A stretch of DNA of 64,000 bases from an uncultured Nitrososphaeraceae archaeon. GTDB lineage: Archaea > Thermoproteota > Nitrososphaeria > Nitrososphaerales > Nitrososphaeraceae. The notes below the pieces were generated by a model that made no database searches, was not told where the DNA came from, and worked only from the letters and a program-made list of their open reading frames with translations. Shown here one piece after another: positions 6,740 to 28,239 of the stretch (position 1 is its first letter; each line of letters opens with the position of its first letter). The position numbers and the translations under genes were made by a program. Location of the stretch: the NCBI GenBank assembly GCA_963779615.1, contig CAVZZA010000003.1, positions 96,001 through 160,000 of the forward strand, read 5' to 3'.

Positions 6740-6949
6740 TTATTCATACATGGTTTTCTCAGACTTGTTTGATCCTTCTTTTGCTTCCTCATAAATTATC
6801 ATTGCAGAGTGATACATCTCATTGTCTTTAAACGTCATAGAATATTTTATATTAATCAAGTTATTCTTGCCAACTTGTTCAAGGTAACTGTTTACGCCTT
6901 TTTCCAAGTTCCCCTCATCGCTTGATTTAAAAATTTTGATTTTTACCAT
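6740..6949 (-). CDS. Small Cse60/DUF2758-like protein
   Basis: VKIKIF.....LEK.VN.YL......INIKYS........SAMIIYE pattern matches what I recall of the Cse60 family. Confidence 0.65.
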   Translation of the reverse strand: MVKIKIFKSSDEGNLEKGVNSYLEQVGKNNLINIKYSMTFKDNEMYHSAMIIYEEAKEGSNKSEKTMYE

Positions 6950-7075
6950 AATTATTAAAGTATTTTGTCTTATTTGAATTTTAAATTTTTGGGTTCTGTT
7001 AACTTGGTTAGGATAATACTTGAGGCTTTATAGCCCTAGTGAGTATATATAAACTATTTTAAACATTATTGACTA

Positions 7076-7228
7076 ATGAATGACTTTGATAAATCCGTAA
7101 AGAAGATGAAAGATGCACAACAAGATGTTGATGCAAAGGTGGAAACTTCACAAGACCATGCAGAAGGAAAACCAAGTTCAGAAACACTGAACAAGGCAAA
7201 AAACAAGATTAAGGATGCACTCTCCTAA
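7076..7228 (+). CDS. 50-aa hydrophilic small protein (hydrophilin/LEA/CsbD-like), missing from the ORF track
   Basis: MNDFDKSVKKMKDAQQDVDAKVETSQDHAEGKPSSETLNKAKNKIKDALS*. TATATATAAA lies about 25-30 nt upstream and a T-tract follows the stop. Confidence 0.7.
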   Translation: MNDFDKSVKKMKDAQQDVDAKVETSQDHAEGKPSSETLNKAKNKIKDALS

Positions 7229-7612
7229 ATTTTTTTAGTTCTGCTCATTCTATAGGTATTATTTTGTGTTTAAAATATAGATAAAATAAAACTTTGAAAT
7301 TTTTAATGATATGTATTTTTGCAGTTACTATCGTACCATTATATGTAAAACCTTTTTTTTATCCTATGGGGTAATTGCCAAAATGGGTTCAAGATCTAAA
7401 ATGCTATTACTCTCATATGCCTACCAAATAGAGTAAAAAACCGCAAGCCAGTCTCTAATCATTTGTTAAGTTTTTCAACAGGTCTAACTGCAAACAATGG
7501 TGTGAATAAGCATGGAGCAAAAGGATGGTAACAAATTAAATTTAAGAATAGCAAAATACACAGCAGGACAGCAGAATTGACAATATGTTATTTCAAAAAA
7601 CAATCAGGCTGT

Positions 7613-9601
7613 TTATTCCCCATTTTTCGCTTTGTCGTCTTTATGCTGGTTATCTGAATTAACGTATATCAAATTTATGAGCAATGGGGATAGTGTGGGG
7701 GGAGATGCCCTAATCTTTTTGGTTGCAATGTTATAGTAATGATCGACTAACTCGTTAAAGTGGTGGATCTGTCTGGCCATTAAACTTATGAAAGAAACTG
7801 CGGTTTGGCATTGTGAAGAAAGATCCTGCTTTTGCCTGTTTAATTCACTCGTTTCTCTCTTTGTTTTTTCCAGTGTCTGCTGTTGTTCTTTTATCGATGA
7901 GTTTATGTTCCCCAATTTTCTCAGATTCTCTATAAATGATTTCCAGTGTTCTGCTCTGTTACTGTTGTTGTTACTGTTACTGACATTTACGGCTTTGCTG
8001 CCCTTGTCTGTGCTGCCTTTGCTGCACTCGCCTTGAGGATCCAACTGTAACTTGCCACTTGCGGTTTCTGTCACCAATTGGCTGATGCTTATGATGTCAC
8101 TTTCGCTTATTCCGTTTTGGAAGAGATAATGCAAGGTTGTGCCTACAAATGGTGCTGATTGCATTGCCAGCCTATTGTTGTTCAGCTCTTGCTCTGCCTT
8201 AAAAAGCTCTTTTCTTTTTTCCTTGACTTTGTCTTCCAACAAAAACTTGTCATGGTAGTTTTCCTCAATGTCCCTTATGAACAAGGACACTGCATCTTGT
8301 GATGATAGGAAATCCTTTCTTGTTCCGGCAATTTCCAAAATGGTGTTCCATATCTGTTTTAGCTCTGTTAGTCCAAAATTCATTGCCTGCAGTTGCCCAT
8401 ACACACCCATCGTTTGCCTGTGCATGCTTACCTGAGATTCTAAATGTGAAACCAGGTTTTGCAAAGAACTTTTTTGTTCAAAGAGTTCATTGACCTCTTT
8501 CTGGTTTTCCGTTATTTGCAATTTGAGGGACAGTGAATTTTTATACGCCCTTATTATTTCGGCTGCGTCATAACCCTTCTCCTTAAAGTCATGGATTAGC
8601 TTGGCTAGTTCCTTTATGCCCTCATCCATGTTAATGTCATAGGTATCCCTTAACACTTTTTTTAGGTCTGCAAATATCTGAAGGTAGGTCATGGTGTTTT
8701 TTTCCCTCTTGTTTGTTATGGCAAGATTCTCCTCTGCCTGAGTCCTTTGCAACTCTAGTTCCTTTATTTCCTCCATTGCCTTTTTTCTGTATTCCTCAGC
8801 CTTGGAGTATTCTTTTTTCATTTGGGCAATACACAAAGAAATTCGGGAAACAAACGGCATTTCAGTTTCATCATTTGGATAGGGGGAGGAAGAGGGGGAG
8901 GCTGTTTGTTTTGATTTGGCATCAGGATGGTTTTCCTTTACCTGCGTGAGAGAGTTAAGACCGTCATCATTATCCTCCCGTGAACTGAAACCTGGTGTTT
9001 TGCCTGTTTTCTGGGGTTGCTGATATTGTGGTTGCCGGGTGGTGGTTGTGATGGTGTTATCCAGTCCACTTGCACTTAGCTTCGGTTGGGCATACCTGTT
9101 TCCATCCTTGTCAAAACCATCATCATCGACATCATAGTTGCCGTTTGGGGAAAAGGGTGACTTGTTTTTGTTGTTGGGGGAAGTGCCGTAAAAGTCAAAC
9201 AAGTCTTTAATCCATGCTGGTACGGTTGAGGGTGCAAGACCTTGCCTTTTGCAGTTCTTATAGACGTCCTCTATAAAGGAGGCGAACTCGTCGTAGTTGC
9301 CCTCGTATTTGTTATCGATGCCATCATCATCACCTTCATGTATGTCAAGTCTTTTCAGTATACCTATCATCCTAAAGCCCTGGGCGCATTGCCCAATCGA
9401 TATCTCCGACTTCCTGACCTTGATCGAAAACTCCCTCAGCGTGTCAATGTCGGGTGTCCCGATTTCTCCTTTCCAGTCGTTTATCAAATAATGCACCTTG
9501 CCTTTTGAGACATTGGTTTCTGAGGCTATTTGGTCCATCGATTTGCCGTTTAGGTAGCCTTGTATCACTAGCGATATGCCGGTTTGTTTTGAACTTGACA
9601 T
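7613..9601 (-). CDS. Uncharacterised protein with N-terminal HTH, disordered linker and long coiled coil
   Basis: YLNGKSMDQIASETNVSKGKVHYLINDWK is HTH-like; heptad-rich C-terminal two-thirds; paralog at 26410-28239. Confidence 0.85.
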   Translation of the reverse strand: MSSSKQTGISLVIQGYLNGKSMDQIASETNVSKGKVHYLINDWKGEIGTPDIDTLREFSIKVRKSEISIGQCAQGFRMIGILKRLDIHEGDDDGIDNKYEGNYDEFASFIEDVYKNCKRQGLAPSTVPAWIKDLFDFYGTSPNNKNKSPFSPNGNYDVDDDGFDKDGNRYAQPKLSASGLDNTITTTTRQPQYQQPQKTGKTPGFSSREDNDDGLNSLTQVKENHPDAKSKQTASPSSSPYPNDETEMPFVSRISLCIAQMKKEYSKAEEYRKKAMEEIKELELQRTQAEENLAITNKREKNTMTYLQIFADLKKVLRDTYDINMDEGIKELAKLIHDFKEKGYDAAEIIRAYKNSLSLKLQITENQKEVNELFEQKSSLQNLVSHLESQVSMHRQTMGVYGQLQAMNFGLTELKQIWNTILEIAGTRKDFLSSQDAVSLFIRDIEENYHDKFLLEDKVKEKRKELFKAEQELNNNRLAMQSAPFVGTTLHYLFQNGISESDIISISQLVTETASGKLQLDPQGECSKGSTDKGSKAVNVSNSNNNSNRAEHWKSFIENLRKLGNINSSIKEQQQTLEKTKRETSELNRQKQDLSSQCQTAVSFISLMARQIHHFNELVDHYYNIATKKIRASPPTLSPLLINLIYVNSDNQHKDDKAKNGE

Positions 9602-9620
9602 TTATGGTATAGATAATATA

Positions 9621-9690
9621 TGGTCAAGTAGTATTTAAATTCGGTCATTTTGATCAATAAAGCGGTCAAAATAGTCAATTATTCGGTCAA
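9621..9690 (-). promoter_or_regulatory. Phased TGACC repeat array overlapping the promoter of the HTH-coiled-coil gene
   Basis: GGTCA (+ strand) at 9622, 9643, 9664 and 9685 (exact 21-bp period), one-mismatch copies at 9652 and 9673, TATA-like ATTTAAAT at 9633-9640. Confidence 0.7.
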
Positions 9691-9695
9691 ATATA

Positions 9696-10096
9696 ATGGT
9701 GCTTGGGGATGAGGTGATTATGCTCTGTTGGGCAGGGGCCAAAAGACGTATTCCATATGCTAAAACAAAAGAAGGTAAAAAAAGAAAACTGCAACATCCA
9801 TGTCTTGATAAAGCATATAATTCCGAGCCCGAAGAGCAAGCAATTGCAAAAAGAGGATATGTACCACATTTACCGTACAGGAGAAAAAAAGGAGAGGTCA
9901 AGAAAGATACGGAAAAGATCATAAATCGCAAAAAACATCCTGCAAGAAGATGGGTTGTGGAGAGAACCAACTCATGGCACAGCAGGTCCAGAAAGCTGTT
10001 CACATGGTATGAAAAGAAAGCAGAGAGATACCTTGGCTTGGTGCAGCTATCATATGGTATCATAATCTACAGAAAGATAGTTTTGGGATAGGCTCT
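9696..10096 (+). mobile_element. IS5-family (IS427/IS1031-like) transposase C-terminal fragment with right end
   Basis: CLDKAYNS and RRWVVERTNSW DDE motifs; GGATAGGCTC-TTA terminus just after the stop; left part missing. Confidence 0.8.
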
Positions 10097-10118
10097 TAAT
10101 TTGCTTAACTGTTTTATG

Positions 10119-11120
10119 TGCTTTGTTGCATAACTAGTAATCAAAAGACTATTTCCATTTGTTTATGCCTTTCCCCTAAGCACGTTATACAAATATACTT
10201 TCATTATCATCTCTTTCACCATGTTTTGAAGCTTGGTAGCAGACACATATTCTCCATAGGTTTTCTTCATAGAAGAGAATGCAGTCTCAGCCATCCATCG
10301 CTTCCCATACCTTCTTTTCTTTTTCCATTTGGGTAGATCATCTGTTGTTTGCAATTTGGCCTCTCTGTTCCTTATCTTGTTGTTTTTGGGTGAGATGATG
10401 GAACTCTTACTTACCCTTATTCCTGGCAGAATGTTTTTCTCTTGAAGACACTTGAAATTCTCATTGCCATTATAGGCCCCATCTGCCAGGACTGTTTTGA
10501 TATTGGCAGCGGCGTTATTTTGCTTTAACATGCGGTCAACCAATCCACACAACACTTTTCCATCATGCACCTTTTCATCAGCCACTTCTAAAGCAAGGAT
10601 TTCCTTGGTCTTTATGTTCACTGCAAAATGTATTTTGAGACAGCCTTTCTTTTTTTAACAAACCACTTGTCCCTTAGCCATTGGCCCCTGTTTGTTACCT
10701 TGATGCCAGTGCTATCTACTGCTATGATAACATCATCATCATCCAATTCACTACTGCTTCTACCACTATCAATGTCAAGGTTGTTTTTCCTTCTGTTGAT
10801 TTGTGAATAGCTGGGATGGCTTGGCAGGTTCTTTCCCGTTGTTGCCTTTATGATCCCTTCTGTTTGCCTATAAGGCAGGTGAAAGTAAACCCTGATGCAA
10901 CCAATAAAAAGAATAAGGGAATTTGGATACCTGTACTTTCTGCCTCCCTTCTTTTCATCCATCTCTTCAACCTCGGTATCACGCCATAAATCCAGAAAGT
11001 CACAGGCAAATAGAATCTCTCCCCTCTTCTTACCATGGACCGGTTATAGGAAGGCCAGTCAGTCAATAATGTTAGTCTAATTTAATCCCAGCTAAATAGA
11101 TTGAGTCATGCAACAAAGCA
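10119..11120 (-). mobile_element. IS5-family IS903-group element, transposase split into three frames
   Basis: TIRs TGCTTTGTTGCATAACT (10119-10135) and AGTCATGCAACAAAGCA (11104-11120), 16/17 match. TDWPSYN..RRGE, LPYRQTEG, AVDSTGIK, ADGAY and RWMAETAFS motifs. No TSD seen. Confidence 0.9.
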
Positions 11121-11206
11121 TAAAAATAACAACATATTAAAACTATGAATTATATGGTTCTGTTAACTTATTTATGGTGATATAATGGTTACGAATAATT
11201 ATTATA

Positions 11207-11861
11207 TTAAATACTTACTCTATCAAAACGGTTATAATTTGATGAATTTGTTTCTATAACCTCAAACGTGCATTCTTTGTAATCTATGGGATTTTCTTCA
11301 TCATGTTCATTGAGAACCATCATCTTGACACTATAATCACCTAATGGCGCATCATTAGGAATACCCCAAGTCCAATCAATCCAATCAATTGTTTTTATCC
11401 ATTTATTCAAAATACCGCTTTTATCATCCGAATTTGATATTGTACCTAGGACAATAAGACTTGGCACTCAATCCATTGTTACAAATATTGGGTGTGGTAT
11501 ATGTAAAATTATACAAGTGTTGGTATTTGGGGTCTTTTAAAGGCACAAAGATTTCATTCATAAAATATCCATTTTTTATCGTTCCTACATATTTAGAGCG
11601 AAAAGATATAGAGTCTTGACCTCTCACGTATATTTTCTTATTGACTATTTGTGCCTCAAATATGGGTTTTCTGAAAAATCTTGGAAAAATTTTTTTGATT
11701 ATTGTTTTGTCATTTTTATCATTTTTGAATACAATGCCAGTTAGGATTGTACTAATTGCACCAACCACTCCCAAAATATTGGATATGAGTGCTTCTACTT
11801 TGAATACATTGATAAGCACGCCTGTAAAAAAATACAAATAAGAATAAAATACAAATTCCAA
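11207..11861 (-). pseudogene. Membrane-anchored protein with probable Ig-like C-terminus, one frameshift near 11445
   Basis: Two overlapping ORFs; N-terminal TM segments; WTWGIPNDAPLGDYSV beta-sandwich-like motif. Confidence 0.5.
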
Positions 11862-12187
11862 TAATCGCGCCTATCCTCTTTAAATTCAAATTTGTTATTA
11901 TTGGGTAATAATTTATTCAATAATTATAGTATACCTTTTGCCTAAGCTATATACTTTGTTTTAGCATTTACCCATACTCAAAGTCGTTTTACCTAACACC
12001 CTTTTTTACGCATAAAAGAAGAAATTACTTGGGTCAATATTGGTAAATGTTTATCTATAACGCCTTAGTTAAGATCTGTAAATGCATTGGTAATGGTTAA
12101 TGTAAAGTAGTTGTAGTTATTTTACTTCATTTGTTTTTTAAAAACAGTATCAAATAAACGATTACTACAATCATCTCGTTTATGGAA

Positions 12188-12256
12188 ACAACCACAATTT
12201 GTTTACAACCACAATTTGTTTATAAACACAACTGGGCTACACATTACACAACTGTT
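12188..12256. repeat. 17-bp intergenic tandem repeat
   Basis: ACAACCACAATTTGTTT twice exactly (12188-12221), followed by two degenerate CACAAC-containing units. Confidence 0.8.
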
Positions 12257-12386
12257 AAGCAAGCCAAATTTAAAAATACAACAAAGAAATAAACGTCAAT
12301 GAATTTATTGCAATTCTGATTTTAACATGTTTCATCCACTCCATCAACAATAGTTGACAAAAATAAAGGAAAAGACATTTGTTTTC

Positions 12387-13307
12387 TTAAATCAAGTCTA
12401 ACAGACTTATCACCATAAAGTCGTTATCTTTTAGATATTTCATCTCTGACTTGAATAATTCAAAACTTGTAGTATAAAACCCGCTTGTTGTGTCAACATC
12501 ATGGTATATTATTATGGGGATTGCACCTATATCTTCACCATCATTATACTTGCTTTGGCTTTCAACCACATCGATGAATCTCTGCAACATTTGCTCATCA
12601 TCATATCCATGGTCTTCTCTTTCAGAGTCATGGCTCCATCCCATTATGGAATATTTACCATATTTTGCGTTGTCATTCAATGAATGGCAATTTATCTTCT
12701 CTTTTGGCAATGAGGAACTAGTTAAACCGCACTTTAGAAATGCCAGTGGATCGTTACCGGTCCTTGCCATCTCATAATGTTTGGCAACTTCTTTCAGTAT
12801 ATCAGGGTTATCTGAACCCCCATTTTTTGGATACGTGAATACTTTAACATCCCTAACGTCATTATCTAATAGGCATTTTTTTGAATCACTTATTTCATAA
12901 ATTGCCATATCCATTGGCATATCTTCAAGATCTGTATGACTCATTGAATGAGATGCTATGTCATATCCGTCTTTTTCCAACTGCTGTATATCATGCCAAT
13001 TCAAATGGTCGCTCATTGAGACATTATTGCATATAATAGAAAAGGTAGCAGGATAACCATAGGTGTCAAGTATCTGTTTGGCGTATTTCATTTGGCCTTT
13101 CTTCCCATCATCAAACGTAATAATTGCCAATTTTTTATCACCGTTGTTTAATGCATCATTTGATTCGTTACCAATGTTTTTGTCTTTGTCTGTTTGACCA
13201 AATACAACCATGTAATTAGATTCACTAAATACATTGGTGGTCACAATCATGCCAGATAAAATTGTAAGTAATATAGATCCCGATAACATGAAGTTAATAA
13301 AAACCAT
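12387..13307 (-). CDS. Secreted polysaccharide deacetylase (NodB/CE4)
   Basis: ITFDDG, ASHSMSH and FTYP motifs; circularly placed IIIYH; signal anchor. Confidence 0.9.
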   Translation of the reverse strand: MVFINFMLSGSILLTILSGMIVTTNVFSESNYMVVFGQTDKDKNIGNESNDALNNGDKKLAIITFDDGKKGQMKYAKQILDTYGYPATFSIICNNVSMSDHLNWHDIQQLEKDGYDIASHSMSHTDLEDMPMDMAIYEISDSKKCLLDNDVRDVKVFTYPKNGGSDNPDILKEVAKHYEMARTGNDPLAFLKCGLTSSSLPKEKINCHSLNDNAKYGKYSIMGWSHDSEREDHGYDDEQMLQRFIDVVESQSKYNDGEDIGAIPIIIYHDVDTTSGFYTTSFELFKSEMKYLKDNDFMVISLLDLI

Positions 13308-17569: not shown

Positions 17570-18234
17570 GGCTCTGTTCACTTAACGAAATCTTATAGCT
17601 TGAAGATGCACAATTTCCTTTGTGCACAGTAGAAACAGAACACCTTCACAATACATTGGTTATGGCCTGTACTTTTATTTTTCAGGACTCTCCTTAAGAA
17701 TAGCCTCTGAAAGGCTGTCATCATGCTTTATCAAGCGAAACCATGTTTCCATCTGGAACTGGATACAATAGCACAACCCAAGGAAGTCGTCCTCAAGTAA
17801 AAGGAGGGTTGAGGAGTTTATTGTTGATGGAACATTGCTTAAGATTGGTTCAGAGTTGGTATGGCTTTGGGTGGCAATTGAGCCTGCCAACAAAGAGATT
17901 CTCTCAATAAGCATATCCAAGGAGAGAAACATGTTTGTGGCCGAGCGTTTCCTGTACCGCCTATTGGAAAAGCATGGGGAGCATCCTGTTTCGACCGATG
18001 GCGGAACATGGTATCCGCAGGCCTGTCAGTTTTTGAAACCAAGGCATCACATGCATTCACCTTATGAGAAAAGCATCATTGAGAGAACAATGCAGTACAT
18101 CAAGGACAGGACGGAAAGCTTTGATGACTATTTTCCATGTAAAAAGAAAAACTGTAAACTCAAGCATGTAAATAATTGGTTGAACCTATTTGCGGATTTG
18201 CATACAAGGGATTATCCATTAAATGAACAGAGCC
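17570..18234 (+). mobile_element. IS6-family element (665 bp), transposase with a nonsense mutation
   Basis: TIRs GGCTCTGTTCACTTAA / TTAAATGAACAGAGCC; perfect 8-bp TSD AGTAAAAG (17562-17569, 18235-18242); ORF from GTG 17622 with in-frame TAG at 17769; WLWVAIEP, STDGG and IER..Q..KDR motifs. Confidence 0.95.
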
Positions 18235-18652
18235 AGTAAAAGCATAGTTGGATGTTCATGCAATCAATCCACTCAATAGGTCATCAAAAACTTTATTAAA
18301 AAAAAAGATATGTTTGATTTAACAAAAGTGTTCATAAAAACACTTGTTCAAACATTTTCTAAAAACAAAAAATTTTAGCAAATAAATTAACTAGGTTATG
18401 CCATAATTTTTATTTTTTTATCAATTTCTGATAGAATCCAATCCCTTTTGATAATTGCTTTATGAGGTATAAAGAATTCTACAGATTAACATCTTCAAGC
18501 GTGTGAATTTCTTCGATTACCTGATCAAGTTCAAATATACTCCAAGTAACAGTTTGATAATCAATCGAATCCTTATAATGTATCATTGGCAAGGCAACAA
18601 CAAAGTAAACTCCATGATTTTAAAACAACAAAACTATTGATTCCACTTTATT

Positions 18653-26300: not shown

Positions 26301-26362
26301 ATTTGACCATTTTTTGACCATTTTTTGACCAATTTGACCAAAAAATAATAACTATGACCAAA
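26301..26362 (+). promoter_or_regulatory. Phased TGACCA repeat array upstream of the second HTH-coiled-coil gene
   Basis: TGACCA at 26304, 26315, 26326, 26335 and 26355; TATTATAAA at 26372-26380. Confidence 0.75.
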
Positions 26363-26409
26363 TTTTAATGATATTATAAACCATCCATACAACAATAAAC
26401 TATGCAAAA

Positions 26410-28239
26410 TTGAGACATTCAAAACAATTATTGGAATCACAGGTTGTTTCGGATTATTTAAAAGCAAAACCGAGGAACAAAATAGCTGTAGATAATAAAA
26501 CATCTGCAGGAAACGTATCAAACATATTAAAGGATTGGAAAAAAGAATAGGAATACCCAATGTTGAAGAACTGAGAGAATTTGTTGCAGCAGTCAAAAAA
26601 TCCGGTATAACAATTGAACAATGTGTCTAAGGTTTTTAGGGTTGCCCAAATGATGAAAAGATTGGGCATCCCCGTTGATGGCGATGATGATGACAACTGT
26701 AATGACGATAGCCAAAATAACAACAAAGATTTCTATTTCTTTGTAGATGAGATATACTTAAATTGCAAAAATCTAGGCATTCCACCAGATACCATACCTT
26801 CATGGATTAAAGATCTGCTGGATTGTTATAATCTTGACAATACAAACCAACAATCCCTTTCACGGAGTTTAGGTGAGCATGATGATAATTATAATGATGA
26901 TAAAAAAGATCCTTCACTGTTAACCCTAAAAGAGCAGGAATTTTTTACGGGTGGGAACAACAGATCAGGTTCAATCGGAATCAGGAAAACAGATTCCTTC
27001 AATAAAGATTCATCCAATCATTTTGAAACCCATCAATCGGCATCATCGCCTAATAATGTTGAAATACCATTCATCTCCCGGGCATCCAATTTCATTGCAA
27101 CAAAGAAAAAACTATGCGTAAAACTTTATAGATATAAACTGGCCTTAGCAGACGAAGTAAAAGGATTAAAATTACAAAAAGGCAAAGGCAACAGACAATC
27201 TTAATAGCATAATTAAAGAGAAAGTCATGTAATATACTTTATCGAATGGTTTTACAAATTAAAAGAAAAGCTCTGGAACGGGTATTCCATAAGAATAGAA
27301 GATATTGACAGTTTTGCCAAAGTTATTAATGATTTTAAAAACCATAGATATGATGCCTATGAAATCATAAAAGAATACAGCGGTGTGCAATCGGTTAGGG
27401 AAGAAGTGATAATAAAAGGAGGAAGGTTAAACTATCTTCAATGGGAAGAGCAAAAGCTAAATGACAAGATAGCAGCTTTGAGACCTCAACTTGACTATCA
27501 AGCACAGATTGTGAATACATATTCAGAATTGGCGGAAATGAACCTTGGGCTCAAAGAGTTAAAACTACTAATGTCAACCATTACCGAAATAGCACAGGCC
27601 AATAACATCGCCTATGACAAAGCGGTTAGTAAATTCTTTATGGATACTGAAGAACAGTATGATAAAAAACTGGGGTTAGAAAACAAAATAAGTGAAAAAG
27701 TACTGGAGCTTGGGAACATAAATAACAATATCTCAAATTCTCAATTTAGATTGCTATTTTATTCCTCGATAGTGCCAATGTTGACTAATCTTTTCCAAAA
27801 TGGGTTAACTGAAGAAGACATTGTAAATATTAATTCAATATGTTTATCGAATGTTAATAAAATTAAAGTCAATTCAAAAGCGGAAAATAAACAAGACACG
27901 AACAAAACAGAATGCTGGAGGCTATTGAAAGAAGATTTAAAAAAATATGGAGAAATCAGCTTGGCAGCAAGAGAAAAATCAAAGGAAGTTGAAGAAATGG
28001 ATAAAGAAATCCATAATTTAAACAAACAAAAACAGGAGCTCACAAATTATTGCAAAAATGCAAATTCCATTATAAATAATTTAAACAGCAAAATTTCATA
28101 TCTTAATGGATCTATCGATTATCTTGGAAATGAGTTGAGCAATAAAATTAAGGCATTTCCAAGACCCCCACCATTGTTTATTTATTTTATGCATAACAAT
28201 ACAGAAAAATGGGGGGATGGAAAGAATGAAGAAATTTAA
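26410..28239 (+). pseudogene. Paralog of the 7613-9601 HTH-coiled-coil protein, with about four frameshifts and one nonsense codon
   Basis: Reconstructed SAGNVSNILKDWK..IGIPNVEELREF...KKSGITIEQCV*GFR, then F..EIY..CK..G..P..IP.WIKDL, EIPFISR, MN.GL.ELK and LFQNG..E.DI, all collinear with the first copy. Confidence 0.85.

Follow-up and report, generated by a model that had tools for sequence, protein, structure and literature searches.

A predicted helix-turn-helix protein of Nitrososphaeraceae and the phased TGACC boxes over its own promoter: a probable autoregulated one-gene module

A 64,000-nucleotide stretch of DNA from an uncultured Nitrososphaeraceae archaeon (GenBank assembly GCA_963779615.1, contig CAVZZA010000003.1, positions 96,001 to 160,000; hereafter, the window) carries on its minus strand a gene for a 662-residue protein (7613..9601) with a predicted N-terminal helix-turn-helix (HTH) domain and a long helical tail, and directly upstream of it a row of TGACC-type boxes laid over the gene's own promoter. 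Comparative sequence analysis indicates that this protein is probably a sequence-specific DNA binder of its own TGACC boxes, with array and gene forming a self-contained, autoregulated module. A first-pass annotation of the window had proposed such an autoregulated cis/trans module and, beyond it, a role in centromere function, segregation or element maintenance; comparison across genomes favors the former part, and the genomic setting of this locus speaks against the latter. The gene-plus-repeats design recurs in relatives across the archaeal class.

The 662-aa gene is an open reading frame (ORF) with an ATG start (100% match, no stops) and the sole intact copy of what we call the long family in the 3.17-Mb genome to which the window belongs (G000), where the other five long loci are split or stop-bearing. 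Six boxes, all direct repeats in gene direction, precede it on the minus strand: TGACC at 9689-9685 (box 1), TGACT at 9677-9673 (box 2), TGACC at 9668-9664 (box 3), TGATC at 9656-9652 (box 4), TGACC at 9647-9643 (box 5) and TGACC, within TTGACCA, at 9626-9622 (box 6). Their start-to-start distances of 12, 9, 12, 9 and 21 bp exactly reproduce those of the first-pass annotation, as does the recurrence of the perfect boxes, four TGACC copies set 21 bp apart around a TATA-like box. The first five boxes form a compact direct array (9643..9689, minus strand) spaced 12, 9, 12 and 9 bp. The TATA box, TTTAAATA (9639-9632, minus strand), stands 38 nt ahead of the ATG and separates boxes 5 and 6; box 5 abuts it at the position of the B recognition element (BRE), and box 6 stands 5 nt past it, before the presumed transcription start. 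Because the TATA box is only 38 nt from the ATG, the 5' leader of the gene would be very short or absent.

The same arrangement is found across the family. All six long-family loci of G000 have an upstream sense row of at least three TGAC-type direct boxes. A wider promoter set was drawn from 75 sequences of this genome and about 35 others, 72 of which have an N-terminal match; two loci cut by a contig end (L039, L081) and two duplicates (L079 and L080, of L040 and L026) were dropped, leaving 68 family promoters. Chains of at least three same-strand boxes occur in 60 of these 68 and chains of at least four in 56, with 374 boxes in sense orientation against 20 in antisense. Adjacent boxes are spaced 12 bp apart 102 times, 9 bp 91 times and 21 bp 18 times, any other distance occurring at most 17 times, so that the 12-9-12-9 pattern with its 21-bp (two-turn) period is a general grammar of the family. 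TATA-like boxes stand at similar positions in most family promoters, and in many the last box begins at the BRE position, 7-11 nt ahead of the TATA box. The minimal promoters (L022, L049, L050) consist of a single pair of boxes, spaced 9 bp and adjoining the TATA box, and a perfect box past the TATA box is present in eight loci of the 'SKGKVHY'/TGACC subfamily (ownA, ownC, L013, L018, L020, L058, L059, L061). Phased boxes upstream of homologs were thus recovered, and the design extends further still: of 14 distant relatives, which belong to three other families of the class, 10 are preceded by direct-repeat arrays of their own (TGAAC, TGAC[GT] or TTGCAC). At three loci of another genome (L046, L057 and L108 of G064) the arrays have grown into long tandems, with TTGACGG pairs at period 20 and a 7-bp TGACGGT unit repeated at least 12 times, an expansion that suggests replication-slippage dynamics of the boxes.

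Across the window, the TGACC pentamer shows no overall enrichment (93 matches against 91.7 expected), and it clusters only at 9622-9689 and at 26304-26359, the latter in front of a decayed second copy. Over the whole of G000, clusters of at least four same-strand TGAC[CG] within 80 bp number 24, as against 0, 0, 0, 1 and 0 in five first-order Markov genomes; they comprise 5 long-family promoters, 3 arrays of a related short family, 5 gene-less orphan arrays and 11 unrelated simple or coding repeats. The strict syntax, TGAC at 9+12 or 12+9 bp, is found at just eight places in the 3.17 Mb, namely the long-family promoters A, B, C, D and F (A being that of the 662-aa gene; A, B and C are of the TGACC type, D and F of the TGACG type) and the orphans o1, o2 and o3; in this genome it does not precede unrelated genes. 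In five further members of the genus, 33 matches were obtained: 19 at family promoters, 6 on five orphan arrays, 3 in simple repeats and 5 apparently by chance. It is the location of these matches that is telling, not their raw count, because a control with the pattern written backwards gave 14 and 2 matches. Two TGAC-containing tandem repeats of G000 unrelated to the family lie on its contig C3 (C3:22438-22872 and C3:380760-381163); one is a 12-bp unit repeated 37 times in an ORF encoding SDGG repeats, and the other a 19-bp unit repeated 22 times.

The five orphan arrays of G000 (o1 to o5, at C1:321769-321845, C3:966239-966273, C5:805726-805760, C1:84426-84474 and C1:527125-527162) are not close to any family gene. 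Orphan o2, a deletion derivative, has its array joined directly to the gene's 3' flank. No family remnants were found beside o1, o3, o4 or o5 by a six-frame profile search of the whole genome, which returned six long and four short loci only. The short-family loci (L082-L085; C3:194252-195223, C3:827413-828111, C5:126999-127786 and C5:260759-261800) encode proteins of 277-344 aa whose first ~140 residues are homologous to those of the long family (26% identity over 85 aa; alignment A2). Their upstream arrays are perfect 11-bp TGACC-core tandems, ATCTGACCGCC repeated 4 times, ATTTGACCACC 11 times and ATCTGACCATC 25 times, and one locus has instead CCGTCCATTTG repeated 5 times. The box in them is directed away from the gene, and the arrays are situated 90-230 nt ahead of the ATG.

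The boxes co-vary with the protein. A single box variant (TGACC, TGACG, TGACT or TGAAC) predominates in each array, and each variant goes with its own HTH residues in the adjacent gene: TGACC boxes pair with 'SKGKV[HF]Y' in helix 3, TGACG boxes with 'R[DE]' opening helix 2 and '..G.VSN' in helix 3, TGACT boxes with 'SKG[ST]V[YF]N', and TGAAC boxes with 'AKGSVFN'. The R[DE] start of helix 2 is seen behind none of 11 TGACC promoters and behind all of 26 TGACG promoters, and the C/G switch at box position 5 is found in both major well-supported clades. These data bear on the alternative that the boxes are bound by another factor or are a structural promoter element, the encoded protein being no binder at all. 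TGAC-core repeats are found in front of short-family genes and as orphans too, and a shared trans factor is conceivable. However, the box variant and the HTH residues of the gene next to it shift together in each of two clades, the syntax is limited genome-wide to family promoters and look-alike orphans, and the different repeats of the distant relatives (TGAAC, TTGCAC) each precede their own gene, which makes this explanation hardly credible.

The description of the protein as an N-terminal HTH followed by a long coiled coil, given in the first-pass annotation, also holds up in the predicted structures, with a confident HTH model, weak Pfam matches and an all-helical region at residues 250-627. 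An N-terminal DNA-binding domain is predicted for residues 1-90 (9332..9601, minus strand; AlphaFold2 model mb1134f65f975), with a predicted local distance difference test (pLDDT) score of 78.8 overall and 94-95 at residues 11-40. Its five predicted helices (3-17, 22-29, 33-47, 52-64 and 69-84) make up residues 1-84, and the helix at 33-47 (nt 9461-9505), which follows helix 22-29, is the putative recognition helix. The closest structural neighbors of residues 6-63 are HTH domains of the LuxR/NarL/GerE type (Z 7.5, root-mean-square deviation 2.4, 58 residues; VIA-align), a Z that is middling for small helical domains. At E<=1, Pfam returns only Nuf2_DHR10-like, Sigma70_r4_2 (E=0.038), HTH_28 (E=0.19; 12.3 bits vs a cut-off of 25) and DUF3533, all of them under cut-off; the N-terminal model therefore backs the predicted HTH better than Pfam, which backs it weakly. 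Several relatives score above Pfam cut-offs, for HTH_23 (P0068, P0171, P0159) or HTH_28 (P0107, P0171), and some for CENP-B_N and GerE.

The five-helix domain is followed by an acidic spacer and a conserved helical pair at residues 106-139 (9185..9286, minus strand), seen in the models and in an alignment of 28 full-length homologs (alignment A1), where F109, Y114 and C117 are invariant and W130 and D133 nearly so; the pair is common to the short family (alignment A2). Next comes a low-complexity linker of ~110 residues (140-249; 8855..9184, minus strand), predicted to be disordered (pLDDT 22-39), which varies in length among homologs and is unalignable in A1. The all-helical C-terminal region, residues 250-627 (7721..8854, minus strand), consists in the whole-protein AlphaFold2 model (me28315076372; pLDDT 57.5, predicted template-modeling score (pTM) 0.21) of long helices at 250-321, 346-406 and 549-627 (72, 61 and 79 residues) and a small helical cluster at 411-514, with pLDDT rising to 84-91 at residues 260-310. 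Heptad-like segments lie at 241-300, 341-380, 421-460 and 541-600 and score 0.259 vs 0.159 for shuffled sequence (standard deviation 0.037) by a rough custom script, and 'long coiled coil' is a fair description of what is predicted. A tail of ~35 residues, predicted disordered, ends the protein and contains a short conserved hydrophobic patch at 636-647. Searches for known relatives were empty: the profile of the 28 homologs had no match among PDB sequences at E<=1, Foldseek against the PDB gave none at E<=0.001 for either model, PHROGs gave none under E = 0.01, and residues 245-662 had no usable match in the ESM Atlas; the C-terminal ~400 residues have no Pfam, PDB or Atlas match.

These features can be assembled into a mechanism. 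The co-variation of box variant and HTH residues suggests that the N-terminal HTH reads one box, and the minimal two-box promoters suggest that a dimer, joined by the helical C-terminal part, would occupy a pair of boxes 9 bp apart. Pairs recur every 21 bp, a spacing that is observed directly and that would place successive dimers on one face of the DNA, perhaps cooperatively. At the 662-aa gene the bound array would then block access of TFB, TBP and RNA polymerase, resulting in autorepression. Occupancy should block transcription because the array covers the BRE position and a further box occupies the interval from the TATA box to the start; on these grounds, repression seems somewhat the likelier sign of regulation for this gene.

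Several observations weigh against this picture. The case for self-binding is wholly comparative. The whole-protein model is poor, the dimer is a putative one, and the Pfam HTH matches of the 662-aa protein itself are the sub-threshold ones given above. Eight of the 68 family promoters have fewer than three chained boxes, and of the remaining distant relatives, two (L096, L097) have no array and two (L094, L095) have a different repeat. Several TGACG-type arrays stop 25-40 nt short of the TATA box, an arrangement that suits activation equally with repression. The perfect 37/37 table of boxes and HTH residues is inflated by shared ancestry: the tree, built on 70 columns, has only 2 independent pairs on well-supported branches and 5 over all branches together, giving an underpowered sign test (p = 0.5), and 13 of the 68 rows, with a stop in the N-terminus or no start codon, were excluded from the co-variation test. 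The pseudogene promoters ownE and L076 break the code, with TGACC boxes in front of an 'S..SN/SK'-type helix. Finally, five of the six long copies are broken in G000, and the family may be largely dispensable there.

The module consists of one gene, as had been proposed. No neighbor gene is conserved at 29 loci in other genomes, nor between the paralogs of G000, and array and gene have been duplicated along with ~260 nt of 3' flank. This unit is sharply bounded, comprising ~95-180 nt upstream, the gene and ~260 nt downstream, and its copies are 70-82% identical. The 3' flank of the 662-aa gene (7352..7612, minus strand) is conserved along with the gene in copy B, and also in o2, which lacks the gene (blastn, MAFFT), and its conservation stops at the identical point in copy A (the 662-aa gene), copy B and o2. 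It contains no ORF of note and no Rfam match, and its RNA fold z of +0.54 gives no sign of a structured RNA; Rfam applied to 6900-10200 gave only a sub-threshold CyaR match, outside the module. Upstream, the homology of copies A and B ends at 9695, and copy B and o2 run ~150 nt further; in copy A, the distal upstream region has been replaced by an insertion sequence (IS) fragment with a Pfam DDE_Tnp_1_2 match (9696..10091, plus strand), which lies outside the module. The array is not part of this neighboring IS, since copy B keeps the array without it. A two-gene operon was likewise ruled out, the small ORFs downstream of three distant relatives not being mutually homologous. Histidine-kinase paralogs near four loci belong to a common family and were taken as coincidence.

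The discreteness of this unit raises the alternative that it is a selfish duplicating or mobile element, its repeats serving as recognition sites and the HTH protein as a mobility or maintenance factor. The sharply bounded homology of copies A and B and the 3' boundary common to three copies would fit, as would the junction of array and 3' flank in o2, which resembles a non-autonomous element, the HTH_23/HTH_28/CENP-B_N-type HTH, common in transposases, and the many, often decaying copies with their related orphans, two of which, in G064, lie in near-identical flanks. However, no convincing terminal inverted repeats or flanking direct repeats, as expected of a transposon or IS, are present at the unit ends of copy B, and no catalytic domain is detected in a protein that is all-helical in its tail and unmatched in Pfam, PDB and Atlas. 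The 70-82% identity between copies gives no sign of a recent burst, and an orthologous locus is syntenic in two genomes. A selfish unit is on this evidence improbable, and an autoregulated chromosomal gene remains the preferred reading.

The syntenic locus just mentioned (L115/L117, at G043:C1:20500-36500 and G073:C9:1-14000) holds a TGACT-class gene in a neighborhood that is conserved on both sides. Identity between the two genomes is 61% for the family gene against 75-92% for eight flanking gene pairs, and the G043 copy is disrupted. Because of this difference in identity, the family gene is taken to evolve much faster than its neighbors.

A more substantial, although still doubtful, alternative is that the gene is a single-protein centromere or partition (maintenance) module, in which the protein tethers or segregates DNA, autoregulation is a side effect, and the chromosomal copies are relics of integrated elements. 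The architecture suits this, with an N-terminal HTH, a long helical tail and direct repeats in the own promoter, and the diversification of specificities recalls incompatibility groups. The distribution is patchy (6 of 145 genomes in one taxonomic family, 61 of 121 in that of the window), with many copies and frequent pseudogenes, and tandem arrays grow to 15-25 units. Orphan arrays exist, and one of them, o5 (C1:527125), lies 130 bp past a tRNA-like gene and ~9 kb from an integrase adjoining tRNA-Val. One distant relative, in the complete genome of another family of the order (L100, G200:C1:1108000-1127999), belongs to an island of ~5.8 kb (positions 7221-12963). There the gene for this 500-aa family member, with its TGAAC array, lies between that of a ParA/MinD-like ATPase and that of a tyrosine integrase, with a 133-aa ORF on the ATPase side and a 359-aa ORF on the integrase side. 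The genes around the island are ordinary chromosomal ones, Mre11/Rad50-like on one side and FAD-oxidoreductase, EF-1-beta and CDC48 on the other. Another family fragment, in G032, is 2.6 kb away from a weak integrase match.

At the window locus itself, the setting is different. The window contains no tRNA, integrase, ParA, replication or conjugation gene, and no nucleoside triphosphatase (NTPase) gene adjoins the 662-aa gene in it. The suggested check of proximity to tRNA attachment (att) sites and integrases was negative for the long-family loci: the nearest tRNA to any long copy in G000 is at least 29 kb away (ARAGORN, run in bacterial mode, which found 24 tRNAs and probably missed some), and no match to PF00589 lies near the long-family loci of G000, G001 or G043. 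The distant contexts in G176 and G125 are without ParA or integrase, and three distant loci are without a tRNA. A scan of IMG/VR viral contigs with the family alignment gave 207 pattern matches, none of them confirmed, and these contigs thus yielded no relative. The combination of an integrase with an att/tRNA site that characterizes integrated elements of Thaumarchaeota is thus absent from the window locus and present only for the G200 relative; the searched passages of a survey of such elements (PMC6563490) contain no mention of the family. The syntenic TGACT-class locus indicates a resident chromosomal gene, and there is no obvious need for 6-10 private centromeres on one chromosome. These observations favor the autoregulated module over a partition system at this locus.

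Comparison with known systems leads to a similar division. KfrA is a protein of broad-host-range plasmids (RA3/IncU, RK2/IncP); in RA3 it is an alpha-helical autoregulator whose operator consists of five 9-bp direct repeats over its own promoter (PMC7783346). The likeness lies in an N-terminal HTH with a long, self-associating alpha-helical tail in KfrA, to which the predicted helical region 250-627 would correspond, and in repeats that overlap the own promoter, here boxes that span the BRE, TATA and start region and are putatively bound. The differences are considerable. The two are unrelated in sequence: KfrA_N (PF11740) is not among the Pfam matches at E<=1, and the profile of the 28 homologs found nothing in the PDB. 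KfrA is encoded on plasmids and acts together with KfrC, IncC and KorB, whereas the family described here is archaeal, chromosomal and multi-copy and has no conserved partner; ParA/ParB-type partners are neither in the window nor conserved beside homologs, one distant relative being near a ParA-like gene. The boxes here are 5-7 bp long at alternating 9/12-bp spacing, and the protein is about twice as long as KfrA, with a disordered linker of ~110 residues.

StbA of plasmid R388 (the StbA/stbS system; 10.1101/2022.04.29.490116) binds as one dimer per two direct repeats with an 11-bp cycle in its own promoter, along one helix face; it represses its own operon, is also a centromere-binding protein, and provides stability without StbB, the operon's putative ATPase, and R388 has extra small arrays of StbA repeats at other promoters. 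As in the family described here, an HTH protein is combined with direct repeats in its own promoter and with arrays elsewhere. By description, the only level at which the two were compared, StbA differs in being small, bacterial and plasmid-borne and in having no coiled-coil tail, and its repeats (9 bp + 2 bp, hence the 11-bp cycle) are nearer to the 11-bp arrays of the short family than to the 9/12 syntax.

The centromere-like site of pSK1 par consists of repeats upstream of par; ParR proteins are of the ribbon-helix-helix type. Par on its own makes up a partition system, and Par, RocS and RacA each combine an HTH, an oligomerizing coiled coil and a C-terminal tail (PMC11500499). The predicted layout of the 662-aa protein, which is three to four times longer, resembles this three-part plan. 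Par, RocS and RacA have MerR-type winged HTHs, and Par and RocS contain DUF536, neither of which appears here at E<=1; the nearest folds of the family HTH are LuxR/NarL-type, with the middling score given above. The Par/RocS anchor is a membrane-binding amphipathic helix or a disordered tail; here the last ~35 residues are predicted disordered and include the hydrophobic patch, and no amphipathic helix is evident. In ParR/parC and TubR/tubC (type II and III partition), tandem direct repeats of 10-12 bp around the own promoter are cooperatively coated by a small DNA-binding protein (10.1101/2022.04.29.490116). Their operons include a cognate actin- or tubulin-like NTPase, whereas the family described here has none conserved at the 29 loci. 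The LuxR/GerE/NarL and HTH_23/HTH_28 families are generic DNA-binding folds and are uninformative on the rest of the protein. KfrA, StbA and Par/RocS/RacA are therefore functionally closest, and the family falls outside each of them by sequence, by domain content and by genomic setting.

Given its ~400-residue helical tail and the existence of orphan arrays with the same syntax, the protein may in addition have a structural role, for example in bridging or tethering DNA at a small number of chromosomal sites. A bolder and quite speculative extension would make the family a set of archaeal 'addressable' DNA tethers derived from single-protein partition modules, with private iteron codes (TGACC, TGACG, TGACT, TGAAC, TTGCAC) in their own promoters and in a few orphans, whose coiled coil bridges or anchors chromosomal DNA and thereby organizes or segregates it without a dedicated NTPase. 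If the tail does bridge or tether DNA, the family would amount to an archaeal equivalent of KfrA, Par and StbA, and a rare one in residing on a chromosome in multiple copies; if the protein is only an autoregulated transcription factor, it would provide usable orthogonal promoter-operator pairs. Ammonia-oxidizing Nitrososphaeria are key soil nitrifiers, and to our knowledge almost nothing is known of their gene regulation and chromosome organization; nor do we know of genetic tools for the group. The comparative data provide a predicted recognition code, relating box position 5 to residues of helices 2 and 3, and a defined site grammar of 9/12-bp alternation with a 21-bp period.

The family is lineage-specific, and no Pfam, PDB or literature description of it was found; the literature search covered full texts other than those of subscription-only papers. 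A word-indexed search returned 46 relatives, all unnamed or "hypothetical", the named sources being Nitrosocosmicus or metagenome-assembled genomes of Thermoproteota. The long protein matches 61 of the 121 genomes of the window's taxonomic family, in 11 of its 18 genera, a tally that takes in two unpublished genomes (G035 and G077), which enter no other result given here. Multiple long-family matches per genome are common (up to 13), and many are stop-bearing. Among 1.84 billion cluster representatives, 2856 match a profile of the N-terminal domain at E<=1e-3, and this profile has matches in 26 of 251 sampled genomes of the class (by family: f1 15/30, f2 6/145, f6 2/9, f9 2/10, others 0). This is an expanded, fast-evolving and often decaying chromosomal gene family of the class, with several specificity classes per genome.

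One of the decayed copies is in the window. The paralog noted 17 kb away in the first-pass annotation does have the TGACC motif, five TGACC(A) boxes on the plus strand starting at 26304, 26315, 26326, 26335 and 26355 (26304-26359), but their spacing of 11, 11, 9 and 20 bp departs from the 12/9 pattern, and the gene behind them (about 26403..28239, plus strand) is a pseudogene of the same long family. It has at least six in-frame stops, found in both matched pieces (one TGA, one TAG and one TAA in one, one TAG and two TAA in the other), and only ORFs of 196 and 284 aa are left. That the two upstream regions share no other likeness was confirmed, blastn finding no similarity between them.

The neighbors of these loci in the window are ordinary metabolic genes, two histidine kinases and IS debris, the last comprising, besides the fragment next to the array, a transposase split into DDE_Tnp_1 and DDE_Tnp_1_5 ORFs (10163-10962, minus strand) and an IS240-type fragment (17835-18239, plus strand). 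Among RNA data, one run, a soil metatranscriptome, contains any of the stretch (share 0.06), as a single 221-nt contig of depth 2.5 at 8619-8838, which establishes neither transcription, start site nor habitat. Downstream of the 662-aa gene, a 69-aa ORF (6740-6949, minus strand) matches Pfam Spore_Cse60 above cut-off (E=3.9e-11, 43.3 vs 20.7 bits), which is unexpected for an archaeon.

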